Source: Bdellovibrionales bacterium (lineage in GTDB: Bacteria > Bdellovibrionota > Bdellovibrionia > Bdellovibrionales > JAUICD01). From it: a stretch of 64,000 nt of DNA. Of the stretch, positions 57,936 through 62,399 are shown piece by piece. The first letter of the stretch is position 1, and every line of letters begins with the position of its first letter. The notes beneath the pieces were generated by a model that was not told the origin of the DNA, searched no databases, and worked only from the letters and a program-made list of their open reading frames with translations. The position numbers and the translations under genes are program-made. The stretch covers positions 2,592,001 to 2,656,000 of the forward strand of contig OZ253553.1 in NCBI GenBank assembly GCA_965262715.1, in the 5' to 3' direction.

Positions 57936-57942
57936 TTTCCCT

Positions 57943-58078
57943 AAAAATAAACCTGCCTCTGGCAGTTTTTGGGCAGTCAGCCTGAAGATTTACATCTTCA
58001 AGAAAATGCTGACTGCCTCAAAAATCCGTTTATTTTTAGGAAGGAGACTCCCTTCGTTTTTTAACATAATGTTAAGGG
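57943..58078 (+). repeat. Dispersed ~145-bp structured repeat copy
   Basis: Matches 30564-30710. Confidence 0.85.
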
Positions 58079-58160
58079 AATTGTATTTTGCTGATTTCTA
58101 TAAAATGAACTTGTTTATCTTATTACCACTATATTGCATAAAAGTTTTAAAGACTATGTT

Positions 58161-58224
58161 GGCCTGTCACGCCGGAGGCCCGCCTCGAGAGGCCACGGGA
58201 CTCGAGCCGAAGTCCACTCCGCCA
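58161..58224 (+). pseudogene. Degenerate 3' half of tRNA-Asp (att-like remnant)
   Basis: GGCCTGTCACGCCGGAGGCC identical to the tRNA, a 14-nt insert, then a decayed T-arm and GTCCACTCCGCCA. Confidence 0.7.
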
Positions 58225-58521
58225 TACACAGAAACTCAAAGCTTTTGATGTTTTAGTATAACATATTAAAATTGTTGCAGTTTATGATTATGTCAAAAGC
58301 TCGTAGTCCTCGGATAATTGCTTTTGCAATTATCTTGCGGAAGAACTCGCCCATTTGGCATAATCATTACACCTTTTTCTTTATGATGAACAGAATTAGG
58401 CTTGTCAATTTAGGTAAATACTTTACAGATATAGGGATTTATCCGGTAATCATATCAGCGACTAGTGTCAATCGCTCCTTTAGTGATTGTCCCTTTTGGG
58501 ACTGGTCGCTCCTTAAAATGG

Positions 58522-60294
58522 TTAGTTGATATCATGAAATAATTCGCGATATTGTTCTTTATCTTTGTATTTATTATGTAAACGATCCCAAAGTTCTTTT
58601 TCTATATTTTTTATAAAACATAAATGCCCTTGGATATGAAATTTTTTCTTATTTTCTCCTTCCTCATAATTCCTTAATAATTTTTTTATATAGTTCTTCT
58701 TATTTCTTCCTATAGATATTTTACCTTCAGGGGTAAGATACAAACCTGTTATTTTTCTTTGACCTTTTTTTGACATGTGGACTGTTTTCTTATTGTTAAT
58801 TTGTAAATCAGATGGGTAAGGTATCTCTTTTATAACTTTTTGTACCTCACTTTCCATAATGGACAGTTTATTAGGTTGATCATGAGAAAAAGCAAGATCA
58901 TCAGCATATCTTGTATAGGTTATACCCAAAGAATGACTATATTCTGATATTTTTTCATCAAAAGAATAGAGCAGAATGTTTGATATAATTGGAGAAGTAC
59001 TAGCTCCTATAGGCAATGAAAAATCTTCATTCGTTATTGAGTCATCTTTAAAAGCTATATCACAAATGAATTCAATATATGTATTAAGCTTTTGACATTT
59101 AAGGTTTATATTTTTTAAATATGCAAAAAAATCTTTTCTTTTTATAGAGTTAAAGAAAGATTTAAAATCCAATTTAAGAATGAATTGATTCTTATAATGT
59201 TTTTCTACATTTTTTCTTATATTACTTCCTTTTACATAAGCCATAGCGGACTCATGTATGGGAAATATGTCTTTGTTATCCAGTATTCTCGTTTTTAAGA
59301 CTTTTTGTAATACATCTAATTGTGGTTGTGGCTTTTTATAACATTCAGAGGGATACTTCTTAGAATAAGAATATGAAAAATAGTCTTCATCTGCAAAAAT
59401 TTTCATGTATTTTAATAAAACTAGGTTACTCATTGTTTTGTCAGCGTCAGCAACCTGCTTAAAAATATCTCTATTATGAAATTCGTTTCTTGAAGCTGAA
59501 GGAGAGATTGCAGATAGAGAACAGTCTGCTCTTATCAAACTTAAGAATTTTATTTTATTAAAATCTGGTTCTTCAATTATCAAACCTAAAGATTTTAGTA
59601 TTTTTAAGTGATTACCTAATTTTTCTGTATATCTTTTAAGTTCATTATTTTTATTCAGTTCTTCAATTATTTGTTCTTCAGTCTTCCATGTACAAAGAAT
59701 TTCCAAAAGAGAAAAATATAAACTTGTGGGATTATTTTCTTGCGTCTCTATTCTATAGTCCTTGTCTCTAAAAGAAAAAATCTCTTGAAATATCTTTTCA
59801 TTGTGATTTGTTTTTTCAATATCATAATATATAATCCTGCCCTCAGAAAGACAAGGATCTTTAATAATGGCTCTTTGTATAAATGAGTCTTTATTAAAGT
59901 GTTTCTCATTTAAAATAATCAATAATTTTTTTTTAAGGCTTGGTTCACAAAGGAAGGCTCCAGCTTCAATCATAGCACCACATCCTTCTAAAAAAATAGG
60001 GATAACTGAAGCTAATCTTGCTATATCCATTTCAAAGTCTAATAGGTTATTATAACCACTATTGGTCTCTGTTAAACATGTCTCCCACAAATGTTGTACC
60101 TTTTCTGCGATAATAATTCGTTCATCAGAAAAAATATTTTTAGTTGCTTTCCCACTAACAAAAATATGATTATATTGGTACTCAACATAATCAAGAAACT
60201 TAGACCTCATAGAGTCTTTCTTATTAGCTCCACACAAAAAGGCCATATTGGGAAGTCTGCCTAAGATATATTTTTTTTGGTCCATGACATCCAT
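58522..60294 (-). CDS. Retron reverse transcriptase with an N-terminally fused Ec86/St85-type NDT effector domain
   Basis: N-terminus FLCG, LLDFE, FLEGCGAMIEAGAF, LKKKL, DSFI, then wHTH-like helices; RT motifs AYVKG..IRKNVEKH, LDFKSFF, LPIGASTSP, YTRYADD, INNKKT, ITG. Confidence 0.85.
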   Translation of the reverse strand: MDVMDQKKYILGRLPNMAFLCGANKKDSMRSKFLDYVEYQYNHIFVSGKATKNIFSDERIIIAEKVQHLWETCLTETNSGYNNLLDFEMDIARLASVIPIFLEGCGAMIEAGAFLCEPSLKKKLLIILNEKHFNKDSFIQRAIIKDPCLSEGRIIYYDIEKTNHNEKIFQEIFSFRDKDYRIETQENNPTSLYFSLLEILCTWKTEEQIIEELNKNNELKRYTEKLGNHLKILKSLGLIIEEPDFNKIKFLSLIRADCSLSAISPSASRNEFHNRDIFKQVADADKTMSNLVLLKYMKIFADEDYFSYSYSKKYPSECYKKPQPQLDVLQKVLKTRILDNKDIFPIHESAMAYVKGSNIRKNVEKHYKNQFILKLDFKSFFNSIKRKDFFAYLKNINLKCQKLNTYIEFICDIAFKDDSITNEDFSLPIGASTSPIISNILLYSFDEKISEYSHSLGITYTRYADDLAFSHDQPNKLSIMESEVQKVIKEIPYPSDLQINNKKTVHMSKKGQRKITGLYLTPEGKISIGRNKKNYIKKLLRNYEEGENKKKFHIQGHLCFIKNIEKELWDRLHNKYKDKEQYRELFHDIN

Positions 60295-60640
60295 AGATTG
60301 ATTTTTTATTAATATTAAATATAAATCCCCTTCTTAATAAAGAAGGGGAAATATATGTAAACATAGCTGTATTTTAAAACTGTTTGCAGATATATTCTAC
60401 CAACATAGTAAAGGATATTATCATTATATAATGGTAGTCAAATAAATTATTTCCCTCTATTTTATATAAGTGTTGCTGCCTCCGTTACAGAGACTAACAG
60501 TATATATGATACTATTTAGTGAATGGTTTCTTATCCAATAAAAACCTTTTAGAGGACTTATCTTGTTTGTTTCTATTATTTCCTGAAATATTGTTTTCCA
60601 GATTTTTAAGTAAAAATAAATGGTCGCTGGCTTATTAAAG
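60295..60640 (-). ncRNA. Candidate retron msr-msd region (boundaries unresolved)
   Basis: Non-coding region upstream of the retron gene with hairpins, e.g. CCCCTTCTT...AAGAAGGGG at 60327-60348; a1/a2 repeats not confidently identified. Confidence 0.35.
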
Positions 60641-61016: not shown

Positions 61017-62399
61017 ATGACAGATAAAAAAATTAAAGATCTCATTTTAACTGGTGAAGGATATCATATAGAGTTTAAACAGGCTTTAGATAAATCTCTT
61101 ATTGATGAAGCTTGTGCTTTTGCTAACTCATCTGGTGGAGATATTCTAGTTGGAGTCACTGATGATGGAATAGTAAAAGGCATTGATATAGACAATCGCC
61201 TTCGCTCTCAAATTCAAGATGTATTGAACCAATTGCAACCAAAATTAGATATTACTATTGAGTCTACAGAAAATCTCATTATTATTCATGTTCCTGAAGG
61301 CCAAGAAAAACCTTATGGGTGTTCAAGAGGTTTTTTTATGAGAGTTGGAGCAAATTCTCAGAAAATGACGAGGAACGAAATCATTGCTTTTTTTAAAAAA
61401 GAGGGACGTGTTAATTTTGAAGAGTTAATTAATGAAAAATCCAGTTTTGAAAAGGACTTTGATTCTAAAGCTTTTAAATATTTTTTAAAGCTTTCAGGTA
61501 TTACTTCGACCATTAAAAAAGAAACTCTTTTACAAAATCTGGATTGTCTAACATCTGATAAAAAACTTACAAACTTAGGGGTTTTGTTTTTTGCTAAAGA
61601 TATAGATCTTATTATGAATTATGCCCTTGTGGATTGTATTTTATTCAGAGGAGCAGATAAAGTTAAGATTTTAGATAGAAAGCAGTACAAAGGAAACCTC
61701 ATTGAAAATATTGAAAGTGCTTTGGCTTTTGTTCAAAGGCACACAAATACCGAATATGTGATTACAGGTAAACCTCGCAGAGAAGAAATTCCTGATTATC
61801 CTGAAACTGCTTTGCGAGAAACCATTGTCAATGCTGTTTGCCACAGAGATTATTTTGAGAAACGGTGTCATGTTGTTATAGAGATTTTTTCTGATAGGGT
61901 GGAGATTTATAACCCAGGTGGATTACCAAGTGGACTTAATCCAAAAGATTTTGGAACGAAAAGTGTTCCGCGAAATCTTTTTATTGCTTCAATGCTACAT
62001 AGAGTAAATTATATAGAGCAAGCAGGAACAGGGATTGGCCGTATCAAAGAGGCACTTGCAAATCATAAAAAGAAGGTGGGACTGGATATTCAGTATAGTG
62101 ATGACAGTATGTTTTATAAGGTTATTTTTAAGAAAGGTAAATTGGTAGAAACTACCCAGAAAACTACCCAGAAAACTACCCAGAAAACTACCCAGAAAAT
62201 TTTAGATCTAATTGATAAAAATCCTTATATTACAAGGAGAGAATTATCAGAGCAAATTAAAAATATCACTCCTGATGGTGTCAAATATCATATAGAGCAA
62301 TTAAAGAAACAAGGGGTTTTAAAAAGAATTGGGGCTGATAAAGGTGGTTATTGGAAAGTGATTAAAAACAATCAGAAAACTTCAAAAATCAAAAATTAA
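61017..62399 (+). CDS. AlbA_2 (Schlafen-like) / RecG C-terminal ATP-binding HTH protein
   Basis: GEGYHIEFK, AFANSSGG..LVGVTDDG, ALRETIVNAVCHRDY, NPGG, RN, EQAGTG; TTQK x4 linker; C-terminal HTH. Confidence 0.88.
   Translation: MTDKKIKDLILTGEGYHIEFKQALDKSLIDEACAFANSSGGDILVGVTDDGIVKGIDIDNRLRSQIQDVLNQLQPKLDITIESTENLIIIHVPEGQEKPYGCSRGFFMRVGANSQKMTRNEIIAFFKKEGRVNFEELINEKSSFEKDFDSKAFKYFLKLSGITSTIKKETLLQNLDCLTSDKKLTNLGVLFFAKDIDLIMNYALVDCILFRGADKVKILDRKQYKGNLIENIESALAFVQRHTNTEYVITGKPRREEIPDYPETALRETIVNAVCHRDYFEKRCHVVIEIFSDRVEIYNPGGLPSGLNPKDFGTKSVPRNLFIASMLHRVNYIEQAGTGIGRIKEALANHKKKVGLDIQYSDDSMFYKVIFKKGKLVETTQKTTQKTTQKTTQKILDLIDKNPYITRRELSEQIKNITPDGVKYHIEQLKKQGVLKRIGADKGGYWKVIKNNQKTSKIKN

Follow-up and report, generated by a model that had tools for sequence, protein, structure and literature searches.

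What remains for a retron reverse transcriptase (RT) to do once it shares a single polypeptide with its toxin, and is msDNA still made by such a protein? In type II-A1 and II-A3 retrons the nucleoside deoxyribosyltransferase-like (NDT) effector is encoded by a separate gene, and in type II-A2 a winged-helix (wHTH) domain is fused to the RT (Mestre et al. 2020, PMC7736814). The msDNA restrains the effector and senses the phage in Sen2 (bioRxiv 2020.06.22.160168) and Eco1 (bioRxiv 2023.08.16.553469), and likewise in Eco7 (PMC12804668) and Eco2 (PMC12916289). The question is raised by a locus of a Bdellovibrionales bacterium (assembly GCA_965262715.1, contig OZ253553.1), located within a stretch of 64,000 nucleotides that was analysed as a whole and is called the window here. 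The gene and its domains, in window positions, are:

58522..60294, minus strand: fused NDT-wHTH-RT gene, 590 aa, without internal stop
59761..60252, minus strand: NDT-like effector domain, aa 15-178, from profiles and conservation
59524..59739, minus strand: winged-helix domain, aa 186-257, from profile and predicted structure
59431..59523, minus strand: linker, variable and of low confidence, aa 258-288
58534..59430, minus strand: retron RT domain of the St85/clade 1 type, aa 289-587 (D376, YADD 463-466, ITG 515-517)

The original prediction of one intact reading frame joining an NDT-type effector to an RT is borne out by NCBIfam and PADLOC profiles along the 590 aa. All sequence motifs named in that prediction are present, and the RT retains NxxxH, YADD and ITG. 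The start codon is probably the ATG at 60285 (Met4), where homologs begin, which would give a protein of 587 aa. The effector model NF038232 (St85; NCBIfam) matches aa 15-251 (E 1.8e-27) with 96.8 bits, slightly below its cut-off of 100, which is exceeded by the homologs P0002 (103.2 bits) and P0010 (109.1 bits); the RT model NF038233 (St85; NCBIfam) matches aa 295-577 with 248.4 bits, above its cut-off of 235. PADLOC assigns aa 4-253 to NDT_II-A and aa 300-579 to RT_II-A, the latter profile (477 positions) being aligned only across its positions 202-467, and RVT_1 is the sole Pfam match on the fused protein. In an AlphaFold2 model based on a 138-sequence alignment (pLDDT 89.6, pTM 0.89), which supersedes an earlier 11-sequence model (pLDDT 55), the RT part compares best with the RTs of Eco7/Ec78 and Ec83 (Z 25.9, rmsd 2.7, 289 aligned). 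The effector part resembles the Eco1 effector fold (Z 14.4, rmsd 5.9, 221 aligned). The G+C content of the gene is 28%, versus 33.6% for the genome, in which no second RT or NDT is matched by the profiles used.

The locus is a variant of the type II-A retrons, and not a II-A1 retron as defined. With II-A1 (Sen2/St85, Eco3/Ec73, Vc81) it shares the clade-1 RT of the St85 family, the NDT/winged-helix effector and the gene order RNA-effector-RT, and its predicted RNA resembles the II-A1 RNA in the shape and order of hairpin, spacer and hairpin. In II-A1, however, the effector is a separate gene, whereas effector and RT form one chain here; moreover, the Lys and Arg of the RT fingers are lost, the a1 arm, the branching G, the first stem-loop and a2 were not found, and the second hairpin is short and terminator-like. 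Retron-Eco1 (Ec86, II-A3) has the same effector fold and catalytic Glu, but consists of two genes with a clade-9 RT and forms an msDNA-regulated 4:4:4 filament, in contrast to the single gene and clade-1 RT described here. Type II-A2 carries the winged helix at the RT N-terminus, as here, but its NDT is split off by a frameshift, whereas the NDT-wHTH-RT frame is continuous in the window. RT and effector also share one polypeptide in the single-protein retrons I-C (Eco2), VII-A1, XI and XII, whose effectors (TOPRIM, DUF3800, protease and TIR) are C-terminal, unlike the N-terminal NDT of the fused gene. In the accessible text of a 2026 source, these four are the only fusion retrons named, and Eco2 is described as msDNA-controlled (PMC12916289); among the best 25 rows of PADLOC output, the profiles of single-gene retrons are those for fusions with Toprim, DUF3800, a protease or TIR.

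Neither an NDT-RT fusion nor a retron without a priming arm was found in the literature searched, subscription papers being outside its scope, and the accessible parts of PMC12475279, PMC8867640 and two 2026 preprints mention neither. The suggestion of an undescribed architecture thus stands for the NDT-RT fusion within this literature, with II-A2 (wHTH-RT) as a partial precedent. A fixed effector:RT stoichiometry (1:1) had also been put forward; it is not new, since the filament of the two-gene Ec86 system is already 4:4:4 (bioRxiv 2023.08.16.553469).

The effector domain appears to be capable of activity. Its key codon is:

59965..59967, minus strand: codon of E110, the equivalent of the catalytic E106 of the Ec86 effector, from alignment

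The putative catalytic Glu is retained, as expected beforehand: in the alignment, E110 falls on the Glu of the Ec86 effector that was changed to Ala for the E106A structure. E64, E88, E103, E110, G112, F114 and S137 are invariant in 14/14 fused-family effectors, and E64, E110 and S137 correspond to Ec86 E65, E106 and S133, at each of which a change to Ala abolishes defence (bioRxiv 2023.08.16.553469). An NAD+/nucleotide-depleting output and an anti-phage role are predicted by analogy with Retron-Eco1 and Sen2. Across NDT, wHTH and RT core of four intact genes dN/dS amounts to 0.14-0.34, with dS near saturation, and the fused gene is mostly under purifying selection.

The RT deviates in one region:

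59329..59382, minus strand: remodelled RT1 fingers hairpin, aa 305-322 (Lys/Arg lost; Y310, Y319 and K320 new invariants)

The prediction of a full RT is correct for the motifs and the Asp triad, but not for the fingers motif, which is degenerate and lacks Lys/Arg. The catalytic residues D376, D465 and D466 are kept in 14/14 members of the family and 2/2 distant members, and the same sequences preserve almost every invariant of the palm and thumb. Among 141 unfused RTs, 53 columns show a conservation of at least 85%; the window's family retains 44 of these columns and loses 9, six of which lie within or adjoin the RT1 fingers hairpin. The fingers Arg, located five residues before a conserved Pro, is found in 1/14 family members and 0/2 distant members, versus 141/141 unfused RTs; it is retained in 11/11 other fusions, and in 28/28 proteins of an enlarged second fused clade (26 by pattern; two mis-anchored rows were read individually). 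The fingers Lys is present in 2/14 family members versus 137/141 unfused RTs. Three residues are new invariants, each at 0% among unfused RTs: Y310 (13/14), Y319 (14/14) and K320 (13/14). Y310 and Y319 occupy the sites of two hydrophobic strand residues, and the hairpin is still formed in the AlphaFold2 structure.

At this place the RTs of G2L4, group II introns and HIV-1, as well as HCV polymerase, have an Arg that contacts the incoming dNTP (PMC12337344), and the same Arg is conserved in AbiK (PMC9508834). Judged by motif and position, the fingers Arg of retrons would be the dNTP-binding Arg of these other polymerases.

A second deviation concerns the RNA. About 110 nt upstream of the fused gene are conserved in all six related loci for which DNA is available, and 6/6 fused loci carry there a predicted two-hairpin RNA element of about 90 nt in single copy. 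In the window its parts are:

60412..60441, minus strand: sigma70-like promoter candidate (9/12), a consensus match only, ending 7 nt before hairpin 1
60381..60405, minus strand: hairpin 1 of the predicted ncRNA, with 3 pairs, a G.A mismatch and 4-5 pairs, the shape of msr stem-loop b
60357..60380, minus strand: single-stranded spacer of about 25 nt, a length as in canonical IA/IIA1 RNAs
60317..60356, minus strand: hairpin 2, a short msd-like stem of 15 pairs with a U-rich tail, terminator-like

Two-sided changes are seen in 5 of the 20 consensus pairs, and folding z-scores range from -2.9 to -6.4 (five loci folded). Searched with a model of the element, the genomes G000, G353, G305 and G366 each show one copy, adjoining the gene; these loci are the training sequences of the model, and the informative point is that there are no further copies. 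The same model has no match in G001 or G243. Membership of the hairpins in a dispersed repeat was considered and ruled out, the element being present once per genome and beside the gene. An Rfam search returned a tRNA as its sole match.

Canonical IA/IIA1 RNAs of two-gene loci were aligned for comparison (17 and 18 loci, boundaries set by the analyst). They consist of TTA(C), an invariant G, a variable stem-loop, stem-loop b, a spacer, a long stem and a2; in stem-loop b, a purine mismatch separates three pairs from four, and the invariant G lies 23-39 nt before this stem-loop. By shape and position, hairpin 1 matches stem-loop b. Neither covariance model, that of the fused element or that of the canonical 5' part, detects the RNAs of the other group. 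At the six fused loci, where a conserved G or common helix was sought, no a1 arm, branching G, first stem-loop or a2 is recognisable. Where canonical RNAs carry a1 and the branching G, the fused loci have a promoter-like box ending 3-11 nt before hairpin 1. This box, which recurs at the same position in relatives, matches 9, 9, 10, 8, 10 and 6 of 12 consensus positions in the six loci, and no canonical locus scores above 8/12 (n=20). Promoter-like sites in the region occur at chance level (18 vs 16.1), the A+T-richness of the fused loci favours both promoter and terminator calls, and the six upstream regions are all kin. Hairpin 2 has 12-15 pairs (three loci scored) versus a canonical median of 23.5 (16 of 24 loci scored), and a terminator-like end is found in 6/6 fused versus 3/20 canonical loci.

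Since the putative dNTP-binding Arg is lost, and apparently the RNA primer arm too, canonical msDNA is very probably not made at the fused locus. The original prediction had assumed an ordinary working retron and did not note the degenerate fingers and the apparently shortened RNA.

Based on this dataset, we hypothesize that the locus works as an RNA-gated anti-phage toxin without canonical branched msDNA, its RT being kept as an RNA-binding scaffold (probability roughly 0.4). With the same tentative standing, the trimmed retron RNA itself would be both antitoxin and phage sensor, reverse transcription of msDNA having been given up. A promoter immediately 5' of hairpin 1 would produce an RNA of about 90 nt that ends mostly at the U-tailed hairpin 2, and this termination would keep the RNA in excess over the read-through mRNA. 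The second stem-loop of the Ec78 RNA wraps the RT thumb (PMC12804668), and the thumb of the fused protein may hold hairpin 1 like stem-loop b in Ec78/Ec83, the RT serving mainly to hold RNA. Hairpin 2, as RNA, would replace the msDNA stem and keep the tethered NDT domain off. The RNA would disappear when the phage shuts off transcription in the host, or through a phage nuclease, whereupon NDT dimers would become active, destroy NAD+/nucleotides as the Ec86 effector does, and abort the infection.

The RNA-gated toxin is favoured by the loss of Arg/Lys, the absence of a canonical 5' part, the promoter-like box and the terminator-like end, and further by the single-copy folded element with two-sided pair changes, the invariant effector residues and the low dN/dS. 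However, the Asp triad and the palm and thumb are retained beyond what is usual in a dead polymerase. Unprocessed Sen2 RNA, moreover, is no antitoxin: a branching-G mutant of Sen2 leaves the toxin active, so that RNA without msDNA provides no restraint (bioRxiv 2020.06.22.160168). The intact Asp triad and this Sen2 result are the main difficulties for the hypothesis. The chance-level promoter sites, the A+T-richness and the kinship of the upstream regions also count against it, as do an a1/a2 helix score that separates nothing (see below), covariance models that do not cross between the groups, and the drift of the effector at the equivalent of S100 and at an otherwise invariant Gly replaced by Ala.

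Type III toxin-antitoxin systems (ToxIN) comprise a promoter, a small structured RNA, a terminator and a toxin gene, and the RNA, present in excess, is the antitoxin. This order of promoter, RNA, terminator and toxin resembles the predicted layout of the fused locus, where an RNA excess may likewise be expected. ToxIN has tandem RNA repeats and an endoribonuclease toxin, whereas the window has a single copy of the element and an NDT-like toxin, and an RT-derived domain would hold the RNA. The ToxIN terminator lies between RNA and toxin; the terminator-like pattern at the fused loci (6/6) is a predicted one.

A close rival, which we regard as possible if rather unlikely, is that the RT is still a polymerase with non-canonical priming, and that the fused toxin is held in check by a short product, either DNA or RNA-DNA. 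The terminated RNA might fold its 3'-OH back on hairpin 2, so that the spacer of about 25 nt is copied, or Y310/Y319 might prime, with K320 and Y319 standing in for the lost Lys/Arg. Consistent with such a polymerase are the intact catalytic triad and palm (16/16), a dN/dS of 0.14-0.33 in the RT core (four intact genes), the invariants Y310, Y319 and K320 that are new to the family, and a fingers hairpin that is still modelled. The U-tail of hairpin 2 pairs back onto the 5' arm of this hairpin, and Tyr priming is known from AbiK (PMC9508834). Tyr-primed AbiK, however, retains the fingers Lys and Arg (PMC9508834), and it primes from a Tyr within a long and mobile loop, in contrast to the hydrophobic strand positions of Y310 and Y319. 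The fingers stretch is also under the weakest selection of the gene, with a dN/dS of 0.40-0.89 in a short stretch for which one pair is undefined.

It is unlikely that the locus is a muted toxin, that is a domesticated or slowly decaying remnant selected for a different function, for example in nucleotide salvage or in binding RNA/DNA, in which fusion was followed by weakening of the effector and the priming parts then became dispensable. The equivalent of Ec86 S100 is Gly in 9/14 fused-family effectors, and the glycine of SFIxxG, present in 59/59 other effectors, is Ala in 14/14 members of the family; these substitutions may alter effector activity or the dimer contact. Broken copies occur as well. 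Among 384 genomes of the window's order, nine match at E<=1e-30 and seven carry the fused family. The fused frame is open in G000, G353, G305, G356 and G300, frameshifted within the wHTH in G366 and without its 5' end in G243, while G090 and G056 contain ordinary two-gene retrons. Several partial family proteins are found on long contigs, and at 59125, in an A run of the RT part, one base is missing from the only contig of a second sample (depth 4.17); this loss could reflect either an error or a broken allele. A muted toxin is contradicted by the dN/dS of the NDT domain (0.16-0.26 in the four intact genes, with dS >1), by the invariance of the catalytic Glu and four further site residues, and by the conservation of the RNA element with compensatory changes; the patchy spread over 7/384 genomes of the order is instead in keeping with a mobile defence gene.

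Even less probable is an ordinary one-piece type II-A1 retron that makes normal msDNA and whose a1/a2 and branching G escape detection through shortness or A+U-richness. The RT scores above the St85 cut-off, the order of hairpin, spacer (25 nt) and hairpin is that of IA/IIA1, NxxxH, YADD and ITG are kept, and the helix score could not exclude a1/a2: compared with shuffles, an a1/a2 helix reaches p<=0.05 in 0/20 canonical and 1/6 fused loci, which does not separate the groups, and duplex energy likewise fails to discriminate fused from canonical loci. An a1 motif pattern (20/20 canonical versus 2/6 fused) is circular, having been fitted to the canonical set. Against normal msDNA stand the lost fingers Arg, the shortness of hairpin 2, and the region 5' of hairpin 1, where no conserved G or common helix is found in six loci. 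The canonical 5'-part model (E<0.01) detects 0/6 fused loci, a result to be read against 4/9 held-out canonical loci detected (5/9 missed), one of the held-out set, L108, being close to a training locus. The model finds nothing elsewhere in G000, G305, G356 and G366; its match in G090 is a training sequence and shows just that the search runs.

An assembly error joining two overlapping genes, where a single indel would suffice given a 4-nt overlap of effector stop and RT start in 15/26 two-gene loci, has a negligible probability and is ruled out by fused homologs, of which at least 10 full-length ones (56-68% identity) are among the matches listed (120 of 225), together with four further genomes with an open frame and contigs from 4 runs (2 samples) that have no difference at the domain junction and no stop or frameshift between the domains. 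The whole ORF is covered with zero differences by contigs from 3 runs of one sample, possibly the source.

The search for full-length fused homologs that had been proposed thus places the window's gene in a family. The four GTDB loci of this family are Bdellovibrionales MAGs, as is one distant member; conservation of the fused gene is seen within a small family of Bdellovibrionales, all uncultured. G001, a genome of the same genus, contains no match to it, and a phylum sample of 401 genomes contains no additional fused copy. Among 80 metagenome loci and 80 viral loci there is no fused ORF, and the phages searched gave no fused match.

A profile search of the whole library returned further fusions of 587-690 aa, and a search with an alignment of these other fusions gave 25 full-length clusters from 30 matches (28 including the earlier ones). 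They define a second NDT-wHTH-RT clade (P0134, P0138 and relatives) of 28 full-length proteins of 598-684 aa with intact fingers, whose RTs hold an insertion of roughly 35 aa, and one record of which is labelled Legionella pneumophila. P0147 and P0167 are single-sequence fusions and possible errors. The 4-nt overlap in 15/26 two-gene loci makes fusion easy, and the existence of the second clade suggests that fusion itself is recurrent. Both fused groups are supported clades in trees, and the first trees placed them apart. Independent origins were considered and could not be upheld: a single origin is not rejected by the AU test (RT without fingers p 0.65; effector p 0.22), and a mixture tree (quick search) has both clades within one unresolved fork.

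A family with an apparently live NDT toxin, but without the putative dNTP-binding Arg and apparently without primer arm, makes the dispensability of msDNA directly testable, and allows one to ask what else the active site of a retron RT can do. The second clade, with its intact RT, offers a ready comparison and represents type II-A in an uncatalogued form with a single protein. Such one-protein retrons might escape detection rules built on two genes.

Several minor observations were made in these genomes and in the protein set. P0131 and P0159, both RTs of the St85 family, are extended at the C-terminus by about 160 aa to which no NCBIfam model gives a name, possibly another uncatalogued fusion. 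G353 contains two different copies of the fused gene (L001 and L002), one of them cut by the contig end. In G243, the family's wHTH-RT remnant (L184:5988-7556) lies right after a transposase-like fragment, amid restriction-like genes (names by eye). In G305 (L003:259-2004), TIR-like, DUF4231-like and NYN-like genes (names by eye) are located 4-6 kb from the fused retron, suggesting a defence island.

In the window, the divergent neighbour of the fused gene (61017-62399, plus strand) encodes a protein with AlbA_2, RecG-C-like and winged-helix parts and short TTQK repeats; proteins of this AlbA_2/RecG-C-like/winged-helix type are usual residents of defence islands. On the other side, the only tRNA-Asp gene of the genome (57859-57935, plus strand) has an exact partial copy of 20 nt located 273 nt downstream, within a decayed tRNA-like stretch (58150-58225, plus strand). 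This copy might be the scar of an integration event at the border of the retron's island. The tRNA-Asp gene is followed by a dispersed repeat of about 146 nt (57936-58081). With the 586-nt flank as query, BLAST returns 366 pieces from the genome, among them at least 8 copies with a period of 235 nt (G000:C1:2868256-2870045), and metagenome contigs cover the flank deeply.
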